A stretch of 64,000 nucleotides of DNA from an uncultured Candidatus Micrarchaeota archaeon (GCA_963800555.1 CAWDBH010000008.1:48258-112257), one strand, 5' to 3'; positions 1,420-62,246 are shown, counted from the first letter of the stretch. Notes: a model not told the origin generated them from the sequence alone. Numbers and translations: made by a program.

Positions 1420-1431
1420 TTATTTAATTTT
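1420..1431 (+). promoter_or_regulatory. TATA-like box (ttatttaatttt) about 25 nt upstream of the ACT-gene ATG; likely a leaderless transcript
   Basis: AT-rich octamer at the archaeal TATA distance from the ATG at 1451. Confidence 0.4.
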
Positions 1432-1450
1432 GGGCGCCATGCTTTTGAAT

Positions 1451-1843
1451 ATGAAAGAAATCGTGGTTGTTACGACTAATGACGTGGGCGCCCTGGCGAC
1501 TATAGCCGAGGCGATAGGCGGGCTCGGTGTCAATATCGAGGCGATATCTGCCTATGGCCTCAGTGGGAAAGCGGTGTTCAGAATCATTACCAATGATGTG
1601 ACTAGCGCGGTCAAGGCGATGTCCCGGATTCCCAACGTGGAAGTCCAGGAAGCCGAGACGATAGTATACCAGATGATGAACAGGCCAGGCGAACTCGGCA
1701 AGATAACTAGGAAGCTCGCGAACAGGGGAGTAAATATCGAGAGTCTCTATATCGTGAGCAAGAAGCAGGATTTCACAGAGGTGGCGATAAGACCGGTTGA
1801 GAAGGACATCGCCAAAGCCAAAGATGCGCTGGGCATGAAATGA
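1451..1843 (+). CDS. ACT-domain protein (two tandem ACT-like halves)
   Basis: MKEIVVVTTNDVGALATIAEAIGGLGVNIEAI... The track start at 1430 is probably too early given the TATA position. Confidence 0.6.
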   Translation: MKEIVVVTTNDVGALATIAEAIGGLGVNIEAISAYGLSGKAVFRIITNDVTSAVKAMSRIPNVEVQEAETIVYQMMNRPGELGKITRKLANRGVNIESLYIVSKKQDFTEVAIRPVEKDIAKAKDALGMK

Positions 1844-1856
1844 AATTAGAAAGATG

Positions 1857-2148
1857 AATATAAGAAAATAAAAATTTAGTTAGAGCTGATGGTCGCGAAA
1901 ACCGCGCTCCGCCCTCCTGAAGACAGAATCACAGTTAGCCCGTCTATTTTGCTAACGCCACCCGGCAGAAGCTGGTCTGTCGCAGGACCGTTGCCGCAGG
2001 CGAAGCTCAGATCATACATGCTGGCTCCTCCATCCGTGGCAACTATGCCCTTATACGTTATCGTCCAACTGCCGTATTGCAGCGGCTGATCAAGGTTCAT
2101 GTAGTCCTTGAATGTGGTGCTTGCCCCTTGGCATGCCGGTCCTTCGCT
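1857..2148. repeat. 292-bp near-perfect direct repeat, copy 1 (copy 2 at 4299..4590; 1 mismatch)
   Basis: Base-by-base comparison. The repeat covers the 3' end of two paralogous lipoprotein genes plus their downstream flank. Partial, more diverged copies lie at about 2846..3072 and 3189..3230. Confidence 0.8.
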
Positions 2149-2715
2149 TGCCGCATCTCCGACAACCGTTCCATCCACAGTTGTAGGTCCATCCTGGGAA
2201 ATTGGAACCGCACCATCGGTGATCGGTCCAGTTGAAGCAGGGCTAGTGTCTCCGACAACCGATCCATCAACAGGCCCGGTTACGGATCCATCAGCTGCTA
2301 CCGGCCCATCTGTGGTCGATACAGTTGCAGCATCAACGACGATTACAGGTCCAGTCGCAGTCATGCATACTGTCTTACCCGCAAGGGTTGTGCATTCTGC
2401 AGCATCCGTGGTAACGGATCCGTCTACGGACGGTTTAACAGTCGAAGAGTCAAGTGCACCACCATCTCCCTCAAATTCACTGACCTCTCCTTTTTCAGCA
2501 TCAGATTCCTCTCTGGCTTCGGAACCTCCATCCTTGGAAGGGACTTGTATAGTGGAAGTCGGACTACCAGCGCAGGCAACCGCGCCAAAGAGCGCACCTG
2601 TCAGAAGAGCGGCAGACAAGGTTTTTCGACCCGTAAAGGCATTCTGCCTTGCTTCCGTAACTGACCCATTAGTATCTTTCCCAACCTTAGTTATCTTTTC
2701 AAGGTTCAATTCCAT
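1876..2715 (-). CDS. secreted putative lipoprotein, paralog A, with a conserved about 80-aa C-terminal domain
   Basis: N-terminal hydrophobic segment with a lipobox-like AVACAG, then a Gly/Asp/Thr/Ser/Val-rich region, then a C-terminal domain KDYMNLDQPLQYGSWTITYKGIVATDGGASMYDLS...SSGGRSAVFATISSN shared with 2828..4192 and 4318..5178. Confidence 0.6.
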   Translation of the reverse strand: MELNLEKITKVGKDTNGSVTEARQNAFTGRKTLSAALLTGALFGAVACAGSPTSTIQVPSKDGGSEAREESDAEKGEVSEFEGDGGALDSSTVKPSVDGSVTTDAAECTTLAGKTVCMTATGPVIVVDAATVSTTDGPVAADGSVTGPVDGSVVGDTSPASTGPITDGAVPISQDGPTTVDGTVVGDAASEGPACQGASTTFKDYMNLDQPLQYGSWTITYKGIVATDGGASMYDLSFACGNGPATDQLLPGGVSKIDGLTVILSSGGRSAVFATISSN

Positions 2716-2827
2716 TGTGCAATCACCTTTGTTTGATTATGTGTTTAATATTATATTATGATGGCAAACATTTATAAATATTCATTTTTTACCATTTCTA
2801 ACTACCCATATATGAAAGAGAATAAAA

Positions 2828-4192
2828 TCAAGGGCAGGTCACATTGATGGTCGCGAAAACCGCGCTCCGGCCTCCTGAAGACAAGTCCAAGCTCATCAGT
2901 GCGTCTCCTAACGGGATGATGCTCACACCATCCGGGAGAATATGGTTTGTCGTCGCTCCGTTTTCGGATCCGACGCTTATATCATACGCACTTGCTCCTC
3001 CATCCGTGGCAACTATGCCCTTATACGTTATCGTCCAACTGCCGTATTGCAGCGGCTGATCAAGGTTCATGTAGTCCTTGTAAACTTCGGATGCGGTACA
3101 ACTTCCTCCTTCAGAAAGATCCGCGTCGATGGCCCCACCCGGAGATACGGCATCTGATCCTCCGTCTTGGCTTTGGATCTCATCTACCGTGATGGTCGCG
3201 AAAACCGCGCTCCGCCCTCCAGAGGACAAATCAATGGTTATGCCCTTTCCGACTGTATTCGGACCGCCGGTCAGAGTTGTGCTGGTTTTGGAGTTTCCGC
3301 ACGATACTTCTACTACATACATTGAAGCCCCTGCATCCGTGACTATCAAGCCCTTATACGTGAATGTCAAACCACCGACAGGCACCTGCTGATCGAGGTT
3401 CATTTCCCCTTTGAACACCCCTGCGCTTTGGCCATTGCAGATAATCGGTTGCGGGCTTGCATCCTCAGCCACTACTATATGTGAGTCGTGAGATGCTGCG
3501 GAATCAGTATGTCCAACCTCGCCGGAAGACTCCACTCCATCAGTGGCTTCCTTGCCATCGATTGTGAAATTCCCGCTTTTGGTATCACCACTTGCATCGT
3601 CTTTTGATTGGCTGTCGATTCCCGAAGCAGAATCCACTGAAGTAGTTCCGCCATCTTGATTCTGTCCGGTTGCGCTATCTGTTCCAGATTCAGAATTATT
3701 GGCCGGGGCATCTGCGACATTATTGGTTTGCCTGGCATTTCCATCCGTCGTGCTCGCGCCATCCACGCCACCGGTAGGTTGTCCTGCATCATCTTCTATT
3801 GCGCTGCCATCTGTTACTCCAACCGGAGTTCCAGAGTCATCTGTGACTCCCCCATCCGCTGTAGAGTTCCCGTCAATTGCCTGGTTAGAAGCTCCAGTGC
3901 CGCCATCGAATCCCGCGCCGCCATCGACTCCGGAACCGCTTTGGTTCGGCCCTGTTTCGATAGTTCCGGCTTCGTTGGATCCGCCAGATGTGCGGTTGGC
4001 GTCGGTGAGCGCAGCATCGCTCTGCGGTGCTCCTGGTATCGAAATAGGGTTATTGATATTTACCCCGTTGCTGCATCCAACCAACGCGGCTATGCCACTT
4101 ACAAGAAGATATCTGCCCAATCTCGGCTTATTTTCACAATTAGATCCGTTTCCTGTCTCCCCAGTCCTTTTACTAATGTGATTCAGTTCCAT
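2828..4192 (-). CDS. secreted putative lipoprotein, paralog B: long low-complexity region plus two copies of the conserved C-terminal domain
   Basis: Start set at MELNHISK, homologous to the starts of paralogs A and C (the track start at 4246 adds 18 residues). Lipobox-like LVGCS. About 250 aa of D/G/S/T-rich low complexity. Two ...YKG(I/L)(V/I)(A/V)TD(G/A)GAS...SSGGRSAVFATI units. Confidence 0.6.
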   Translation of the reverse strand: MELNHISKRTGETGNGSNCENKPRLGRYLLVSGIAALVGCSNGVNINNPISIPGAPQSDAALTDANRTSGGSNEAGTIETGPNQSGSGVDGGAGFDGGTGASNQAIDGNSTADGGVTDDSGTPVGVTDGSAIEDDAGQPTGGVDGASTTDGNARQTNNVADAPANNSESGTDSATGQNQDGGTTSVDSASGIDSQSKDDASGDTKSGNFTIDGKEATDGVESSGEVGHTDSAASHDSHIVVAEDASPQPIICNGQSAGVFKGEMNLDQQVPVGGLTFTYKGLIVTDAGASMYVVEVSCGNSKTSTTLTGGPNTVGKGITIDLSSGGRSAVFATITVDEIQSQDGGSDAVSPGGAIDADLSEGGSCTASEVYKDYMNLDQPLQYGSWTITYKGIVATDGGASAYDISVGSENGATTNHILPDGVSIIPLGDALMSLDLSSGGRSAVFATINVTCP

Positions 4193-4298
4193 TGTTATCC
4201 CACCCTTGTTAATATTATTGTATAATTGTGTTATAGAAGAAAACATTTTTAAACATTGGTATAAACATAAAGAAATCGCTCGACGATATATAATCGAT

Positions 4299-4590
4299 AA
4301 TATAAGAAAATAAAAATTTAGTTAGAGCTGATGGTCGCGAAAACCGCGCTCCGCCCTCCTGAAGACAGAATCACAGTTAGCCCGTCTATTTTGCTAACGC
4401 CACCCGGCAGAAGCTGGTCTGTCGCAGGACCGTTGCCGCAGGCGAAGCTCAGATCATACATGCTGGCTCCTCCATCCGTGGCAACTATGCCCTTATACGT
4501 TATCGTCCAACTGCCGTATTGCAGCGGCTGATCAAGGTTCATGTAGTCCTTGAATGTGGTGCTTGCCCCTTGGCATGCCGATCCTTCGCT
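4299..4590. repeat. 292-bp direct repeat, copy 2 (see 1857..2148)
   Basis: Identical to copy 1 except for one base. Confidence 0.8.
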
Positions 4591-5178
4591 ATCGACAGCG
4601 TAAGCATCTATTGTTCCCCCTGCCTCTCCGATCTGTCCATCATTTGCCTTTGAGGATATATCCACCGCTGATGTATCGAGAGAGATTATCTGATCCGGGG
4701 CGACATCAACGCCTAGATTTTCAGCATCAACCGTCTTGACTGAAGCAAGATCGGGGGAGTTGGCTAAAGTGGTATCGGAGACGCTGCCAGGAACATCCGT
4801 TGCAGACCCATCTTGCGGATTGATACTTCCAACACCATTTGGTCTATCTTCCATTGCATCAATTCCGGCCACATTGACTTCTGTGCCGGAGCCGCCGTCG
4901 CTTTCTATTGCAGAACCGCTATCAGAGACTGCGTCGCCGTCGCTCGCGTTTCCATCGCTGCCTTTCGTTTCTTGACCAGAATCTTTCGTGGTCTTACCGC
5001 TATCTACTGCGGCATCCACAATCGGAATCGGGATGTTATCCTGAACCGCCTGATTAGAGCAGCCAAATGCCAGTGCGACGGCTGGTATTCCAAGCCATTT
5101 TGCCCATGGTTTTGCATGAGTCTTCTCATTCTCATGCGTTTTCGGACCTTTCTCAATCCGTTTCTCAGAAATTTCCAT
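4318..5178 (-). CDS. secreted putative lipoprotein, paralog C; C-terminal 90 aa identical to paralog A
   Basis: Start set at MEISEKR; lipobox-like AFGCS. The upstream 5' UTR/promoter (...caagggtgggRtaaca-ATGGAA) is shared with paralog B. Confidence 0.6.
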   Translation of the reverse strand: MEISEKRIEKGPKTHENEKTHAKPWAKWLGIPAVALAFGCSNQAVQDNIPIPIVDAAVDSGKTTKDSGQETKGSDGNASDGDAVSDSGSAIESDGGSGTEVNVAGIDAMEDRPNGVGSINPQDGSATDVPGSVSDTTLANSPDLASVKTVDAENLGVDVAPDQIISLDTSAVDISSKANDGQIGEAGGTIDAYAVDSEGSACQGASTTFKDYMNLDQPLQYGSWTITYKGIVATDGGASMYDLSFACGNGPATDQLLPGGVSKIDGLTVILSSGGRSAVFATISSN

Positions 5179-5258
5179 CAATACCCCACCCTTGTTAATA
5201 TTGCTATATAATTGTGTTCTAGAAGAAAACATTCTTAAACATTAGTATTAACAGCTAG

Positions 5259-5912
5259 CTAGAGGATGCGATACCCTTTCTCGTTTCCTACAATGATCAG
5301 ATCGAATTTGGTGAAAATGCCGTTCTCTATGATGCCAGGGATGTTTTTGAGCCAGTCCTCGGTTTTCTTCGGATCCTCGAGCCTCATCTGGCAGTCTATT
5401 ATGAAACTGCCGTTGTCGCTTATCACTGGGCCGAGCTTGGCCTTCGCCATCCTAATCTTAGGGTTGAATCTCTTCAACTGTTTAATCACCAGCGGAGCGG
5501 CAAAAGGCAGGACCTCCAGGTTCACCTCGCCTTCCAAGACATCCCCGCAAACCTTTCCCTCATCCACTATGACGATGAATTTTTTCGCGTTATAATCTAT
5601 TATCTTCTCCCTAGTCAGGGCACCACCACCGCCTTTCAGGAGCGCGGTCTTAGTCACAGTATCAGCCCCGTCTACGGCAAGGTCTATCTCATCTATGGCA
5701 TCGGTCTCTGTGACGAACAATCCGCTTTCGATAGCCAGCATCCTAGAATCGAATGACGTGGTGACGCATGTGATCTTGAGCCCCTTTTTGGCTTTCTTAC
5801 CAAGCAGGACGATGAACTCACGTACAGTGGAACCGCTCCCCAGGCCTATGCACATGCCGTCTTTGACATACTCTAGTGCCGCCTTGGCGGCGTTTATCTT
5901 GGAGAGGCTCAT
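5259..5912 (-). CDS. rpiA: ribose-5-phosphate isomerase A
   Basis: GLGSGST and DGADE motifs; 217 aa. Confidence 0.9.
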   Translation of the reverse strand: MSLSKINAAKAALEYVKDGMCIGLGSGSTVREFIVLLGKKAKKGLKITCVTTSFDSRMLAIESGLFVTETDAIDEIDLAVDGADTVTKTALLKGGGGALTREKIIDYNAKKFIVIVDEGKVCGDVLEGEVNLEVLPFAAPLVIKQLKRFNPKIRMAKAKLGPVISDNGSFIIDCQMRLEDPKKTEDWLKNIPGIIENGIFTKFDLIIVGNEKGYRIL

Positions 5913-8595: not shown

Positions 8596-8701
8596 AGCGG
8601 GGTAACAGAATCTAATGATTTAGATTCTGCCCTATGGGAAGCTTGGAGTTCCCGCTGGGCTCATAACCCAGAGATCGGTGGTTCAAATCCACTCCCCGCT
8701 A
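8596..8701 (+). tRNA. initiator-type tRNA-Met (CAU) interrupted by an about 31-nt insertion between positions 9 and 10 (non-canonical intron candidate, about 8605..8635)
   Basis: A1:U72 acceptor pair (AGCGGGG/CCCCGCT), three G:C pairs in the anticodon stem (CTGGG-CTCATAA-CCCAG), and T-arm GGTGG-TTCAAAT-CCACT. Removing acagaatctaatgatttagattctgccctat restores a canonical D arm (GGGA-AGCTTGGAGT-TCCC). The insert holds a perfect 10-bp hairpin, CAGAATCTAA-tgat-TTAGATTCTG. A T7 run follows. Confidence 0.6.
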
Positions 8702-11680: not shown

Positions 11681-11811
11681 TGCCGAGGGGGGAATTTGAA
11701 TCCCCGACCTCTCGATTTCTCGAGTGCATAATATCATCGGCATGATGCCTCATCACTCATCGGGTTTGCACCTATGAGTCGAGCACTCTCAACCAGCTGA
11801 GCTACCTCGGC
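11681..11811 (-). tRNA. elongator tRNA-Met (CAU) with a 56-nt intron at the canonical 37/38 position (intron about 11717..11772)
   Basis: Exon 1: GCCGAGG-TA-GCTC..GAGT-G-CTCGA-CTCATA. Exon 2: A-TCGAG-AGGTC-GGGGA-TTCAAAT-TCCCC-CCTCGGC-A, with a perfect acceptor stem. The intron carries GUGAUGA and GAUGA motifs. The track ORF 11529..11756 overlaps this tRNA and is spurious. Confidence 0.75.
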
Positions 11812-12565: not shown

Positions 12566-12676
12566 TCATCTCGTTATATGAAGGAACACCATATATTCTT
12601 TGCGCCTCTTGAAGGGCATGCGTGCTCCGGAACGGCACCCGCCCTTTTTATTCTCTTCATCGGATATCTGGACTGG

Positions 12677-15600
12677 ATGGCGGTTCCGTATTCTGATATG
12701 CTGCGTGATGGGCTGCAGAAAGCCTATGCTGTCGCGAGCGAAGCCAGGGCGAAAGGGCTGGACCCGAGCGACGAGATAGAAGTGAAGCTCGCAAAAGACG
12801 TCGCGGCCCGCGTGGAAGGTATCGTCGGACCCCCGGGAGTCGCGGACCTGATCCGCTCCCTCGAAGCGGGTGGCATGTCCCGCGAGGACCTGTCATTCGA
12901 GGTCGCGAGGAAGATAGCCTCCGGCGAGGTCATGGAGGGGGACAAAACCGCTCTCATGGAGCAGGCAGTCCGCACGGGCTTGGGCATAATCACCGAAGGA
13001 GTCCTGGTCGCGCCCACCGAAGGCATAACGCACGTCAAGATAAAGCAGAATCCGGACGGCAGCGATTATCTGGCCATCTATTTCGCAGGCCCTATCCGGA
13101 GCGCGGGCGGCACGGCTGCTGCGCTCAGCCTCGTCCTCGCGGATATAGTCCGCAGGATATGCGGTGTCGGGGATTACAGGGCGACGGATTCCCAGATCAT
13201 GCGCTATATCGAGGAGGTCATGGTCTACGAGAACCGCGTCTCCCACCTCCAGTATATGCCGCACGAGGAGGACATGAAGATCATACTCGCCAACTGCCCG
13301 GTCTGCATCGATGGCGATCCCACGGAGGATGTCGAGGTGTCCGCCTATCGCGGGGTGCCAGGCGTCGAGACCGACCGCGTCCGTGGCGGCGTGCCCCTCG
13401 TGCTGTGCGAAGGCGTCGCGGCGAAGGCGTCCAAGCTCCTCAAATACACCAAGAAGCTCAAGCTCGGCTGGGACTGGCTCGAGAAAGTGATCAAGATAAA
13501 GAAAAAGGCCGACACGGTTGAGATCAAGCCGGATCCGACATATCTGGAAGGATTGGTCGCGGGACGCCCGGTGTTCGCGCACGCCAGCGCCAAAGGCGGA
13601 TTCCGCCTGCGCTATGGCAGGAGCAAGACGAACGGCCTGATGGGCCGCAACGTCCATCCAGCTACGATGCTGCTTCTGGATAATTTCCTGGCCTACGGCA
13701 CGCACATGAAAGTGGAGCGGCCTGGCAAGGGCTGCGTGGTCGCCGCGCATGACGGCCTCGAGCCTCCTGCGGTCCGCTTGAAATGCGGCCGGGTGATGAA
13801 GGTCCGCACGCTGGATGAAGCGGAGAAGATAAAGAGCGATGTCGAGGAGATCCTTTTCCTGGGGGACATACTGGTCACCTACGGAGATTTCCTGAAATCG
13901 AACCATCCCCTCATGCCTTCAGGGTATTGCGAGGAATGGTGGCAGAGGGAACTGGAGGCCAAGGGAGTGCAGGCGCCGCAGAACCGCGACGCGAAATCCA
14001 TGTTCGAGCTCTCCCGTCTCCACGGAGTGCCTCTGCATCCGGACCACACGTTCCACTGGCATGATATCACCCCAGACCAGATCCGCTCCCTGGCGCAATG
14101 GCTCAGGGCAGGCCAGTTGGATATGGAAGGCGGAGCCATCAGCTCCCTCAAGCTCCCCAAATCCGACGCGAAACGGGTCCTCGAAGAATTGATATGCGAG
14201 CACCGCGTCAATGAAGGCACGATCGTCCTGGAGAGCGACATCGCGTTCGCATTGCTATCCTCCTTGGGATGCCTCGTTGACGGGAAGATCGAGACGTTCG
14301 CGTTCGACCAGGCATGGGATGCGTCTAAAGCGCCTCTCGCGTTGGTGAACGAGCTCTCAGGGATCTCCATCAAGGCAAAAGCGCCGACTTACATAGGCGG
14401 CAGGATGGGCAGGCCGGAGAAGGCGAAGGAGCGCGCCATGGAAGGCTCGCCGCACGTGCTTTTCCCGACCGGCTCCTTCAAGAACCGTAGCATCTCAAAG
14501 CAATACCGCACGCTGAAGAGCCGGGAAGGCGAGAAGACGCTCAATCTGGAGCTCGTGCGAATGCGCTGCACCAAATGCAAGCGGCTCGGATACACCCGCA
14601 GGTGCGAGGTATGCGGAGAGCGCGCCCTGGAGGAGCGGGTTTGCCACAAATGCGGCAGGATCGTGGAAACCGAGATCCACTGCGACATGAAGACCCTGCC
14701 CTATGATGTGCGTCCCGTGGACGTGGTGACGCTTTTCGAAGGGATAAAGGACCGGCTCGGCATCCTTCCGGATGACGTGAAAGGCGTGAAAGGACTCTCG
14801 AACATGTCCAAGATACCCGAGAGGCTGGAGAAGGGGTTCCTGCGGTCCAAGCACGGGGTTTTCGTGTTCAGGGACGGGACCTCCAGATTCGATGCGACAG
14901 ATGTCCCGCTAACGCATTTCACTCCTCACGAGGTCGGCTTGAGCCTGGAGAGGGCCCGGGAGCTAGGCTATGAGAACGATTATCTGGGCAACCCTCTCGA
15001 GAACGGGGAGCAGCTACTCTCCTTGCGTCATCAGGACATAATCCTGGCTGAAGCCGGATATCAGTACTTCACCAAGGTCTGCAATTTCATAGACGAGATG
15101 CTGGTCAATTTCTATGGCCAGAAATCGTTCTACAACATCAAGAGGAGGGAGGATTTGATCGGGCACCTTGCTGTCGGATTATCACCTCACACCAGCGCCG
15201 GCGCCCTCTGCCGCATAATCGGATTCACCAAGGCCACGGTCGGATATGGGCACCCATATTTCCATACCGCCAAAAGAAGGAACTGCTTCCATGGTGATGA
15301 GACCATCATGGTCCACGACGGCAAATGTTTCAGTCATATGCGCATGCGAGACCTCGTCCAGTCCAATCTGAATGGGAGGATAGAGAAAGACGATTTCGGT
15401 ACAGAATACAAGATGGTTAGCGGGCTCAAGACATTCGCATTCAACAAGGACACAAAAAGGTTCGAGCTCGCGGAGATAACACATGTCTCCAAGCATATCG
15501 CACCATCCAAGCTCATGGAGATAAAAACGAAAAGCGGGAGGCGGATCCGCGTCACATCCGATCACCCGTTCCCGAATTCCTCAGGCCATAAAATCCCGGC

Positions 15601-17422
15601 TTCGGATGCCTCCGAACTCCTCTCTCCGTGGAATATAGAGAACTGCGCTGAGAACGATACGCGCTCTATACCCCTCCTTCCAATCGCAGGGGAGGGCGCT
15701 ATGATACGGACCGATGAAGAAATCTTCCCAGACGCGCAGCTATCAGATATAAGCCGCTCTCTCGGCATGAGCTACAAGACGTTCACCAATTACTCCTATC
15801 GCGGTTCCTATCCAATAGGGCTCATACGCAGATTCAGGCCATCCATTCTAGATGGAAAATACAAGCTCGGCAGCAAACGGGACAGGGTATCGCTGAACCC
15901 AGACGTGCAGGTCGATGATCCCCTACTCTCCATCTTAGGTTTTTATATCGCGGAAGGGTATATGAGGAAAACCCAGGTGAGGACGAATCAGGTTGCCATC
16001 ACCGCCACCAAGAGATGGGCCAAGAGATATCTTGCCAGCACGATAGAAGAGGTATTCGGCATTAAGCCTGCCATATGCGAGAACCAAGTGGTCATCTGCT
16101 CGAGGATAGTCCGCGAGCTATTCTCACGCTTGGAGATAGGTTCGGATGCCTATTCGAAACGGGTGCCTGGATTCATCTATTCATTGCCGAAAGGGAAACG
16201 GCACGCATTCCTCAGGGGATACTTCTCAGGAGATGGTTCATGTTCCCTCCAGAGTACCTTGGAAGTGAATGTGACGTCAGTCAACAAACCGCTCATAGAT
16301 GCTGTCTCGTATCTCCTTCTCTTCTCCGGGATAAAGCATTCCATACAAGAGGAAAAACGTTTCATCACCAGCGGTCAGGTATATGAATTCTATGGCAAGC
16401 CCAAAGAGTGCCACTCCTACAAGATACGCATCTTCGGAGAGCAAGCCCGGAGGTTCATCCAGGATATCGGTTTCCTTGATGAGAAGCACGCTCATGCCGT
16501 GAAATTGCTTGACAAATGGCTCAAGAAAAGGGGTACCGGGCGCACGAGATTCGATGGCGACGCATTCTCAGACAAAATCGTCTCTAAAAAAGAGATAGAC
16601 TCTGACGAACGCCATGTATACAGCCTCACGGTTTCTCCTCATCATACACTCATATGTTCAGGAGTTATAACAAATCAGTGCGATGGGGATGAAGATTGCG
16701 TGATGCTGCTCATGGACGCGTTCCTGAATTTCTCCCGCAAGTACCTGAACGAGAAGCGCGGGGGCACGATGGATGCGCCATTGGTGCTCTCAATGGAGAT
16801 AAACCCCAAGGAGGTGGATGACGAGGCGCATTGCATAGAGTTCGTCTGGAAATATCCTCTGGAGTTCTACCAGGCGGCGGAGCGGTTCGCATCGCCCGGA
16901 GAAGTCAGGCTCAAGACCGTGAAGGACGTGCTCGGCACTCCGGAGCAGTTCGAGCTCCCGATAACGCATATCGGCGGAAGCATTGATGTGGGGAACTGCC
17001 GCACGGCCTATGTGCTCCTGAACTCCATCCCGGAGAAGATCGATATCCAGTTCAGGCTCCAGGAACGACTCCGCCCGGTGGACCAGCGCGATGCGGCCGA
17101 GCGGTTGATACTCAGCCATTTCATCCCAGACCTCTACGGCAACCTACGTTCGTTCTCGAGGCAGACCTTCCGGTGCGTGTCATGCAACAACATCGCTCGG
17201 AGGGTCCCGCTCTCAGGCCGGTGCGCCAAATGCGGCGGAAACCTCCTGCTCACTATAAACAAGGGCGGGATAGTGAAGTACCTGGAGATATCCAAGGAGA
17301 TCGTGCGCCGCTACGACCTGCCGGATTACCTGAAGCAGAGGTTAGAACTCGTCGGCAAGGAGATAAAGAGCATATTCGAGGATGACAAGATAAAGCAGAC
17401 CGGTCTCAGTGAATTCCTATAA
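12677..17422 (+). CDS. polC: DNA polymerase II (PolD) large subunit DP2, containing a 465-aa intein
   Basis: The N-terminus MAVPYSDML..GLQKAY..ARAKGLDPSDEIEV..A.DVAARVEGIVGPPGVA matches DP2 N-termini. The intein sits at the conserved AKRRN|C...Q|CDGDED site. C-terminal Zn-finger cysteines are present. The extein is about 1116 aa. Confidence 0.9.
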   Translation: MAVPYSDMLRDGLQKAYAVASEARAKGLDPSDEIEVKLAKDVAARVEGIVGPPGVADLIRSLEAGGMSREDLSFEVARKIASGEVMEGDKTALMEQAVRTGLGIITEGVLVAPTEGITHVKIKQNPDGSDYLAIYFAGPIRSAGGTAAALSLVLADIVRRICGVGDYRATDSQIMRYIEEVMVYENRVSHLQYMPHEEDMKIILANCPVCIDGDPTEDVEVSAYRGVPGVETDRVRGGVPLVLCEGVAAKASKLLKYTKKLKLGWDWLEKVIKIKKKADTVEIKPDPTYLEGLVAGRPVFAHASAKGGFRLRYGRSKTNGLMGRNVHPATMLLLDNFLAYGTHMKVERPGKGCVVAAHDGLEPPAVRLKCGRVMKVRTLDEAEKIKSDVEEILFLGDILVTYGDFLKSNHPLMPSGYCEEWWQRELEAKGVQAPQNRDAKSMFELSRLHGVPLHPDHTFHWHDITPDQIRSLAQWLRAGQLDMEGGAISSLKLPKSDAKRVLEELICEHRVNEGTIVLESDIAFALLSSLGCLVDGKIETFAFDQAWDASKAPLALVNELSGISIKAKAPTYIGGRMGRPEKAKERAMEGSPHVLFPTGSFKNRSISKQYRTLKSREGEKTLNLELVRMRCTKCKRLGYTRRCEVCGERALEERVCHKCGRIVETEIHCDMKTLPYDVRPVDVVTLFEGIKDRLGILPDDVKGVKGLSNMSKIPERLEKGFLRSKHGVFVFRDGTSRFDATDVPLTHFTPHEVGLSLERARELGYENDYLGNPLENGEQLLSLRHQDIILAEAGYQYFTKVCNFIDEMLVNFYGQKSFYNIKRREDLIGHLAVGLSPHTSAGALCRIIGFTKATVGYGHPYFHTAKRRNCFHGDETIMVHDGKCFSHMRMRDLVQSNLNGRIEKDDFGTEYKMVSGLKTFAFNKDTKRFELAEITHVSKHIAPSKLMEIKTKSGRRIRVTSDHPFPNSSGHKIPASDASELLSPWNIENCAENDTRSIPLLPIAGEGAMIRTDEEIFPDAQLSDISRSLGMSYKTFTNYSYRGSYPIGLIRRFRPSILDGKYKLGSKRDRVSLNPDVQVDDPLLSILGFYIAEGYMRKTQVRTNQVAITATKRWAKRYLASTIEEVFGIKPAICENQVVICSRIVRELFSRLEIGSDAYSKRVPGFIYSLPKGKRHAFLRGYFSGDGSCSLQSTLEVNVTSVNKPLIDAVSYLLLFSGIKHSIQEEKRFITSGQVYEFYGKPKECHSYKIRIFGEQARRFIQDIGFLDEKHAHAVKLLDKWLKKRGTGRTRFDGDAFSDKIVSKKEIDSDERHVYSLTVSPHHTLICSGVITNQCDGDEDCVMLLMDAFLNFSRKYLNEKRGGTMDAPLVLSMEINPKEVDDEAHCIEFVWKYPLEFYQAAERFASPGEVRLKTVKDVLGTPEQFELPITHIGGSIDVGNCRTAYVLLNSIPEKIDIQFRLQERLRPVDQRDAAERLILSHFIPDLYGNLRSFSRQTFRCVSCNNIARRVPLSGRCAKCGGNLLLTINKGGIVKYLEISKEIVRRYDLPDYLKQRLELVGKEIKSIFEDDKIKQTGLSEFL
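15284..16678 (+). other. intein within polD DP2 (Hint domain plus LAGLIDADG homing-endonuclease motifs; C-terminal Gln)
   Basis: Begins CFHGDETIMV and ends SGVITNQ followed by the extein Cys. It carries the LAGLIDADG-like blocks LLSILGFYIAEGY and HAFLRGYFSGDGS. A C-terminal Gln is known for the Pyrococcus abyssi PolII intein. Confidence 0.8.
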
Positions 17423-24080: not shown

Positions 24081-24185
24081 ACGGGCCTGGTGAGATTTGA
24101 ACTCACGACACACGGATTTCACCTTTTAGGAAAAGATTTCCTTCAGATAAGAGTCCGTCGCTCTACCAAGCTGAGCTACAGGCCC
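24081..24185 (-). tRNA. tRNA-Lys (CUU) with a 31-nt canonical (37/38) intron (about 24117..24147)
   Basis: GGGCCTG-TA-GCTC-AGCTTGGTA-GAGC-G-ACGGA-CTCTTA[intron]A-TCCGT-GTGTC-GTGAG-TTCAAAT-CTCAC-CAGGCCC-G. A TTTTATATTG box lies about 30 nt upstream and a T-rich tail follows. Confidence 0.75.
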
Positions 24186-61818: not shown

Positions 61819-62246
61819 GGTATTTGAGGCGTTCCGCCCCCTTCGTACATAATGCGTTAAAAACTCTATCAATCCATATTGATATAGAAACGGTTATGCT
61901 CATCTTGGGAGAGTGCCGGAGTAGTCTAACGGGCTGGTTTTGCAAACCAGTGGCTTAGTGCCTTCGTGGGTGCAAATCCCACTTCTTATTGCATTTAGCG
62001 TCAGCCAGCAAGGAAGCGAAGCGATGCCGCGACCAGCGCACCGACCACGCTCACGGTGAGCGCACTGCGACACAATTTCTTTATCCTTAATGCGGGATCG
62101 GATTAGCGGCCGGCCCCGCAGGCGGGGCACGTACGGAAGAGCGCTGCCGGGCGCCCTGGGAAAAGATTGATTCTGAGAGAGCCGAGGATACGATTCCACC
62201 GGGTCATTCACCACTGAGGCTTCCCTCTTAGCTATGTAAGTTCGTA

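Follow-up and report, generated by a model that had tools for sequence, protein, structure and literature searches.

We analyzed a stretch of 64,000 nucleotides (nt) of DNA from an uncultured Candidatus Micrarchaeota archaeon (GCA_963800555.1, CAWDBH010000008.1:48258-112257), hereafter called the window, in which positions are counted from the first letter of the stretch. It carries three tandem genes, here designated A, B, and C, for probable lipid-anchored surface proteins, and the 3′ ends of A and C are identical over 292 base pairs (bp) except for a single nucleotide. That this identity results from gene conversion, and that the tandem copies evolve in concert, is well supported by comparison with related genomes. 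The explanation as a whole, according to which the three genes encode tethered surface proteins with a stalk and one or two beta-domain heads, and the heads are homogenized by gene conversion, has in our estimate a probability of about 0.8.

The genes lie on the minus strand in the transcription order C, B, A and are flanked by rpiA (5259-5912, minus strand) and a gene for an ACT-domain protein (1430-1843, plus strand). By open reading frame (ORF) calling in the window all three are intact. The genes, their predicted beta domains, and the tracts that they share are as follows (aa, amino acids).

4318-5178, minus strand: gene C, 286 aa, with predicted signal peptide, putative lipobox Cys40, 160-aa acidic stalk, and one C-terminal beta domain
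2828-4192, minus strand: gene B, 454 aa, with predicted signal peptide, putative lipobox Cys40 (LVGC), 210-aa acidic stalk, and two beta domains
1876-2715, minus strand: gene A, 279 aa, with predicted signal peptide, putative lipobox Cys48, 145-aa stalk, and one C-terminal beta domain
1879-2136, minus strand: beta domain of A, aa 194-279
4321-4578, minus strand: beta domain of C, aa 201-286
3185-3442, minus strand: beta domain D1 of B, aa 251-336, with 49% aa identity to the A/C domain
2831-3103, minus strand: beta domain D2 of B, aa 364-454, with 68% aa identity to the A/C domain
1857-2148: first copy of the 292-bp block (3′ end of A, stop codon, and 19-nt T-rich flank)
4299-4590: second copy of the 292-bp block (3′ end of C, stop codon, and 19-nt flank)
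2994-3080 (B D2), 2024-2110 (A), and 4466-4552 (C): 87-nt tract, perfect match
1887-1938, 2845-2896, 3190-3241 (B D1), and 4329-4380: four-copy family of the last strand, all encoding LSSGGRSAVFATI

Evidence for gene conversion among the tandem copies

Each block takes in the last 90 codons of its gene together with the stop codon and continues into the T-rich flank for 19 nt downstream. The single mismatch, at position 2139 (G vs. A), lies 10 nt from the block edge and leads to a proline in A and a serine in C. Outside both edges the identity drops at once to that of random sequence, which bears out the original prediction of a near-identical block between genes whose 5′ parts differ. A and C thus share 99.7% nucleotide identity over the block, and the number of synonymous substitutions per synonymous site (dS) is 0 over 64 synonymous sites.

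To place this identity in time, we compared the window with L035 (JGI 3300010341) and L036 (ENA ERZ27315280), two independent short contigs of one related genome, and with L038 as a third relative (copies in relatives are marked with a prime). Between the window and L035 the dS of orthologous domains is 0.83 for the A/C type, 0.62 for D2, and 1.06 for D1, and A of the window is 78% identical to C′ of L035 at the nucleotide level. Each of the three contigs carries the end of C′, then B′, and then the start of A′. This shared C-B-A order indicates that C predates the split of the genomes and that the identity of A and C arose later.

The related genome appears to have gone through the same process on its own. 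The ends of the contigs overlap by exactly 123 nt in L035 and by 141 nt in L036, values which we take to be the maximal k-mer length of the respective MEGAHIT runs. End overlaps of this length point to a cycle in the assembly graph through an identical repeat, and hence to an A′/C′ repeat that belongs to the relative itself. This repeat is only 78% identical to that of the window. The short-read assemblies of L035, L036, and L038 break exactly inside the repeat, so that the contigs measure 2.3-2.6 kb and overlap at their ends by the length k; since the repeat breaks assemblies, the family is likely to be fragmented or missing in metagenome-assembled genomes (MAGs) of Micrarchaeota.

Shorter tracts show the same pattern. 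The 87-nt tract, a perfect match inside an A/B D2 pair that is 74% identical, has 0/87 differences between the paralogues vs. 15/87 and 18/87 between orthologues, while the corresponding pair of the relative has a different perfect run of 44 nt within a tract of ∼95 nt that contains two mismatches. The last strand of the domain carries genome-specific motifs, namely LSSGGRSAVFATI in all four copies of the window, LTNGG(R/Q)GAVFATI in three copies of L035, EGG(K/P)G in the closest GTDB genome, L001, and TPSSAGRAG in two of the three copies of L038, the third having TPYNAGVAG. Taken together, three signs of concerted evolution were found: the paralogues are closer to each other than to their orthologues, the edges of the mosaic are sharp, and the duplication predates the identity. 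The dS of 0 between A and C vs. 0.83 between orthologues, the relative's own A′/C′ repeat, and the genome-specific motifs all speak for the family being homogenized by recombination, as had been proposed from the window alone. Moreover, the independent tracts in the related genome suggest that concerted evolution is ongoing and keeps the heads uniform.

A 20-nt stretch, GCGCGGTTTTCGCGACCATC, which encodes AVFATI, is present at 1887-1906, 2845-2864, 3190-3209, and 4329-4348 and also at the domain ends of L036. It is identical, synonymous sites included, in 7/7 domain copies of two genomes that otherwise differ at ∼50% of their synonymous sites. This stretch may be a recombination anchor, or it may be under constraint at the nucleotide level.

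The ratio of non-synonymous to synonymous substitution rates (dN/dS) of the domain between orthologues is 0.17-0.33, indicating that the domain is under purifying selection. No promoterless silent cassettes were found, as A, B, and C all keep a TATA-like box, a GGTG motif, an ATG, and a signal peptide that are conserved across genomes, and a tandem-repeat search detected no phase-variable simple repeats in this region of the window. Recombination thus appears to homogenize the domain and not to diversify it, while stalks and gene number vary instead.

Probable lipid anchor, predicted stalk, and beta domain

The three proteins start with a charged n-region of 25-30 residues, followed by a hydrophobic segment and a cysteine after small residues (...LFGAVAC in A, ...AALVGC in B, and ...ALAFGC in C). 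A positively charged n-region followed by a hydrophobic segment of 10-20 residues, as expected of a signal peptide, is found in A (...GRKTLSAALLTGALFGAVAC), B (...KPRLGRYLLVSGIAALVGC), and C (...AKPWAKWLGIPAVALAFGC). The lipobox core of PROSITE PS51257, which presumably reads {DERK}(6)-[LIVMFWSTAG](2)-[LIVMFYSTAGCQ]-[AGS]-C, was matched as a regular expression by A, B, and C as well as by their orthologues in L035, L038, and L001. In all family ORFs examined (26/26) the cysteine directly follows the hydrophobic segment, although distant members often deviate from the core (AHAC, PSC, PNC). With respect to the strict lipobox, i.e., [L/V/I] at -3, [A/S/T/V/I] at -2, [G/A/S] at -1, and C at +1 (PMC12462473), B fits (LVGC), whereas A (AVAC) and C (AFGC) have an alanine at -3. 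Lipobox proteins and the lipidation enzyme AliA have been reported in DPANN archaea (PMC12462473). A, B, and C are therefore probably lipid-anchored surface proteins, in agreement with the original prediction of three paralogous lipoprotein genes.

With their basic n-region, hydrophobic segment, small-residue lipobox, and cysteine, the proteins resemble the AliA/AliB-dependent archaeal lipoproteins, which carry thioether-linked archaeol (PMC12462473). Unlike most known archaeal lipoproteins, they are not solute-binding proteins, their n-region is unusually long, and the -3 residue of A and C is not L, V, or I. They also have two extra motifs, K-[WY]-L-L ahead of the hydrophobic segment and N-x-[IV]-P-x-P after it. 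The former is family-wide, and the latter takes the form of roughly C-x(3-8)-[NT]-x-[IV]-[PQ]-[IV]-P after the lipobox cysteine in A, B, and C and in the family loci; neither is part of the canonical lipobox.

The stalks extend for 145-210 residues past the cysteine, are rich in G, S, T, D, A, and V, and have a net charge of -19 to -29. In B, where two diverged domain copies had been foreseen behind a D/G/S/T-rich region, D1 and D2 indeed follow a stalk of 210 aa (G 17%, S 13%, D 12%, A 11%, T 10%; net charge -29) and are separated by a 25-aa linker. The AlphaFold2 model of full-length B has a predicted local distance difference test score (pLDDT) below 50 for residues 1-248 and 340-364 and of 70-85 for the two eight-strand domains, suggesting that the stalks are disordered. 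The A-type stalk contains a conserved Cys-x9-Cys (gene A aa 106-124, 2343-2400; L001 12093-12872; A′ of L036), which reads C-T-x-L-[AG]-G-x-x-V-C followed by GPV[IV]VDAA amid low-complexity sequence and may form a disulfide hairpin. In L036 the A′ stalk has a 51-nt tandem repeat (2294-2416, 2.4 copies, 90% identity) that is missing in the window, suggesting that stalks change length through repeat expansion.

The 64-kb window contains exactly four copies of the beta domain, all within A, B, and C, as determined by tblastn with the domain, and an iterated hidden Markov model (HMM) search found no further, more diverged copies in it. The domain has 86-91 aa and is predicted to be all-beta with an eight-strand up-and-down meander. 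For the isolated A/C domain, AlphaFold2 with a 10-sequence alignment gave a pLDDT of 89.4, a predicted template modeling score (pTM) of 0.77, and eight consecutive strands. Every aligned copy has Cys4 together with either Cys49 or a cysteine at the extreme C terminus, never both, and this holds for distant members as well; in B D2 the C-terminal cysteine replaces the mid-domain one. The either/or pattern suggests that the domain is probably disulfide-bonded and, accordingly, that it is located outside the cell. Conservation within the domain is highest in the last strand (GGRSAVFATI), and the C termini of the proteins (...AVFATISSN and ...AVFATINVTCP) form a beta strand of the predicted globular fold.

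No known family accounts for this domain. Neither the three proteins nor 11 separate domain copies matched Pfam at E-values up to 5, and the same queries gave sub-threshold noise only in NCBIfam. A profile search of PDB sequences yielded nothing below E = 2, and Foldseek vs. PDB a best E-value of 0.018 with a template modeling (TM) score of at most 0.37. A structure search of BFVD returned unnamed phage proteins only. When 1.84 billion representative proteins were scanned in full with HMMER, only 14 matched, and seven of these are the family itself: they include A and C of the window, a B orthologue (P0001 represents the B cluster), two L001 proteins, and one further relative, and all seven come from close Micrarchaeota. 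The remaining matches were to long proteins with repeats of the HYR_4C, Big_1/Invasin_D3, Ig V-set, and even Tudor type, and the hairpin motif W-T-[IV]-T-Y-x-G-x-x-x-T-D-x-G of the domain yields weak profile matches. A kinship with Ig-like, HYR, or Big domains was considered and rejected, since these matches are heterogeneous (Tudor among them), inflated by repeat number, and due to non-specific beta hairpins. The domain is like HYR_4C, Big_1, Invasin_D3, and Ig V-set domains in its length of ∼90 aa, its all-beta character, and its terminal position in stalk-like surface proteins, but unlike them it has no Pfam match above threshold and no PDB structure in Foldseek with E <0.01 or TM >0.37. 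A word-indexed homologue search with the domain and with the 10-sequence alignment returned nothing, which reflects a limitation of the index, since the full HMMER scan did find relatives. A scan of genome contigs with the domain alignment found no match, a scan of viral contigs found none either, and a scan of metagenome contigs returned the JGI contig (L035) alone. The domain is thus apparently an uncatalogued, clade-specific family, and the earlier statement that it could not be named still stands.

Proposed mechanism, rival explanations, and known systems

We propose that the proteins would be exported via Sec, after which the lipobox cysteine would be lipidated with archaeol by an AliA-type enzyme and the signal peptide cleaved. 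Tethering to the outer face of the membrane by this lipid is likely, judging from the lipobox. A flexible acidic stalk would then hold one head (A, C) or two heads (B) of predicted structure away from the membrane, presumably on the cell surface. A role of the head as a binding module is plausible but tentative; the ligand might belong either to a host cell or to the envelope of the archaeon itself. The head domain would be under selection while the stalks are free to diverge, and non-reciprocal homologous recombination among the tandem copies would repeatedly overwrite the domain-coding 3′ ends. The newest tract, of 282-292 bp including the stop codon and the terminator flank, would have made A and C identical, an older or shorter tract of 87 bp would link B D2 with both, and a last-strand tract of ∼30 bp would be common to all four copies. 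Conserved stretches such as the invariant GCGCGGTTTTCGCGACCATC could seed recombination and keep the heads matched.

Several points weigh against this explanation. The contigs of the relatives, being short and collapsed or cut inside the repeat, provide indirect evidence, and the exact identity of the window copies rests on the assembly, in which a small number of true differences may have been removed by consensus polishing. Paralogous domains share no more than 74-86% identity in genomes at a greater distance, which indicates that homogenization is episodic and not constant. The cysteine stands at residue 40-48, past the 35-residue limit of PROSITE, owing to the long n-region; its -3 neighbor in A and C falls outside L/V/I, and in some distant members an H or P occurs close to the cysteine. 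Finally, the neighboring genes are housekeeping genes and give no clue to the function of the head.

The block could simply be young if C were a recent product of unequal crossing-over, with a 5′ part of the B type and the 3′ end of A. C does combine a B-like promoter, leader, and N terminus (GCSN...IPIP) with an A-type 3′ end, and copy number does change: in L001 the interval from rpiA to the ACT gene contains no more than a B-like and an A-like gene, the flank of the first of the two matches the upstream flank of C in the window, and the N terminus of this first gene resembles a mosaic of C-like and B-like parts. The two-gene cluster and the mosaic N terminus indicate such changes, probably by unequal crossing-over. 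However, L035, L036, and L038 at dS ∼0.6-1.0 from the window already have a C-type 3′ end, the B promoter, B, and A, so that C is older than the identity, and neither the shorter tracts of B D2 and D1 nor the genome-specific motifs in all copies can stem from a single duplication. We therefore regard a recent chimera as improbable. Even less credence is due to an artefact of assembly or polishing in which the copies are not truly identical or one was rebuilt from the reads of the other. A 292-bp repeat exceeds common k-mers and did break the short-read assemblies of the three relatives, and polishing with multi-mapping reads homogenizes repeats. Nevertheless, the copies are in frame, belong to different genes, have unique flanks on each side, and keep one mismatch. 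Independent assemblies back the junctions, with rpiA and the C-type promoter as well as A and the ACT gene in L001 and the C-B-A order in the other three; the relative shows its repeat in two independent metagenomes (JGI and ENA), and the mosaic tracts of 87 and 30 nt cannot be artefactual. An assembly collapse and a well-known family had been named beforehand as findings that would overturn the original prediction; both were looked for, and neither was found.

Two further readings concern the purpose of the exchanged unit. Antigenic-variation systems such as Neisseria pilE/pilS, Borrelia vlsE, and Anaplasma msp2 work with cassettes, and a programmed system of this kind would also show tandem surface-protein paralogues with clear recombination tracts. 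Coding DNA is indeed less conserved (71-76%) than the intergenic regions (95.5% for B-A and 86% for C-B) between the window (2716-2827 and 4193-4317) and L036 (292-403 and 1763-1874), and an excess of non-synonymous variation has been reported in surface proteins of DPANN symbionts (PMC6142677). Still, the part exchanged is the most conserved one, the copies become alike, and the window offers only three or four possible donor copies next to the missing silent cassettes and simple repeats, which makes such a contingency system very improbable; the antigenic or adhesion variation suggested originally as the purpose is not borne out by the conserved domain. The idea that the C-terminal unit is a sorting signal of the archaeosortase type (PGF-CTERM) or a cell-wall anchor carries hardly any weight. 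The unit is always C-terminal in single-domain members and its last strand is the most conserved one, but it is a globular all-beta domain of 86-91 aa whose C termini, in sequence and AlphaFold2 models of A, B, and C, have no terminal hydrophobic helix, i.e., no transmembrane helix, and no basic tail. Internal copies exist as well (B D1, and mid-protein in L008 and L010), and an N-terminal lipobox anchor is already present. A sorting or anchoring function, for which a search had been recommended, was rejected on these grounds.

Gene conversion that keeps the heads alike has parallels elsewhere. In Helicobacter pylori, the 3′ segments of babA and babB reportedly are homogenized within a strain, as described by Pride and Blaser (J Mol Biol 2002), whereas their 5′ and middle parts diverge. 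Here, likewise, a 3′ segment is identical within a genome while its orthologue differs, the 5′ and middle parts are distinct, and the tract edges are sharp. In contrast, our genes are found in a DPANN archaeon and lie in tandem, whereas babA and babB are dispersed; homogenization extends over an entire small globular domain and the terminator, and no link to host-receptor switching is known for A, B, and C. With the cassette systems they share segmental, non-reciprocal recombination among surface-protein paralogues, but they lack silent cassettes and a single expression site, and exchange affects the conserved part under purifying selection and leads to uniformity.

The kind of system is therefore already known, and what is new is a clade-restricted, probably extracellular domain family with a confident predicted structure. 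Current understanding is not overturned; bacteria offer well-known cases of this phenomenon, and the function of the domain is one that we infer. Nevertheless, the locus is a very clean natural case of apparently ongoing gene conversion in an uncultivated archaeon, and the lipobox architecture that it clearly shows in a DPANN lineage gains relevance from the discovery of archaeal lipoprotein biogenesis by AliA/AliB. Micrarchaeota and other DPANN archaea depend on cell contact, and their surface proteins are almost uncharacterized. DPANN surface proteins evolve fast and are suspected to mediate host contact (PMC6142677). It is conceivable, albeit unlikely, that the 88-aa unit is a new fold that serves this clade of Micrarchaeota as a head for recognizing a host or partner, with conversion matching all heads to a changing ligand. 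If so, the same head would be presented on stalks of differing length and valency, and the locus would become a candidate for setting the host specificity of a DPANN ectosymbiont.

Putative promoters, genomic context, and other features of the window

The longest ORFs of B and C reach 4246 and 5232, respectively, and both begin at an ATG within the TATA-like box and promoter. The predicted true starts are the ATG at 4192 for B (MELNH) and at 5178 for C (MEISEK), which were chosen because they lie 8 nt past a GGTG and 61-63 nt past a TATA-like box. This spacing is constant in A, B, and C, with GGTG followed after 8 nt by ATG and TTTA(A/T)(A/G)AATG 61-63 nt upstream. The start at 5178 agrees with the end coordinate of the original prediction, and the product of C read from it is identical to the database protein P0002. 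The product of A is identical to P0003, and both database proteins come from one shared NCBI/ENA contig with no name attached. The putative promoter elements, read from the sequence, are the following.

5230-5239, minus strand: TATA-like box of C, TTTAAGAATG, 61 nt before the ATG; GGTG at 5187-5190
4244-4253, minus strand: TATA-like box of B, TTTAAAAATG, 61 nt before the ATG; GGTG at 4201-4204
2769-2778, minus strand: TATA-like box of A, TTTATAAATG, 63 nt before the ATG; GGTG at 2724-2727
4187-4267: promoter and 5′ leader block of B, 81 nt, 86% identical to 5173-5253 of C

The TATA-like boxes would act as archaeal promoters, and each gene has one GGTG as its predicted ribosome-binding site. 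The conservation of the promoter and 5′ untranslated region between B and C, already seen in the original prediction, extends over the 81 nt listed, and the TATA region of B is nearly identical in L036, L038, and L001. Upstream of gene A, the window and L036 agree at every position over ∼75 nt, a sign of strong constraint on the whole leader. RNA structure was considered as its cause; the leaders are short and AT-rich and resemble a plain promoter with a Shine-Dalgarno sequence. The peptide MFSS.TQLYNNINKGG is an artefact that results from translation of the TATA box and leader (window 4193-4246 and 5179-5232), and database proteins such as P0007 carry the same mis-start as the long ORFs of B and C.

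A scan of genome contigs with RpiA of the window revealed the taxon and the synteny: the protein is 75-89% identical to RpiA of Bilamarchaeaceae-like MAGs of Micrarchaeota, the best match being CAWDQD010000019 (89%). By iterated HMM, the family is present in 11 of ∼29 Micrarchaeota loci, namely those in which RpiA is at least ∼81% identical. In all of them (11/11) the copies lie immediately downstream of rpiA, with one to five in tandem, and four of the 11 loci have extra copies elsewhere, namely in a second cluster in L013 and as incomplete ORFs at the ends of contigs in L002, L005, and L010. Some relatives have up to five family genes in two clusters (L013, 5204-6755 and 10669-13564; L008, 4356-7528). 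An additional mid-protein domain in L008, L010, and L029 (CTPQTVSA...RITATMRC) was recognized by iterated HMM as a divergent copy.

Elsewhere in the window, the gene for the large subunit (DP2) of PolD (12578-17422, plus strand) contains an intein with a LAGLIDADG homing-endonuclease domain (Pfam, ∼aa 921-1364). Two Rfam tRNA matches, 24082-24185 (minus strand, 104 nt) and 11681-11811 (minus strand, 131 nt), were missed by ARAGORN and, to judge from their length alone, probably contain introns. An archaeal origin is indicated by PolD and is compatible with the long tRNA matches. Positions 8636-8693 give a partial tRNA-like match, and a second tRNA-Ala(TGC), 84 nt long, occupies 61907-61990.

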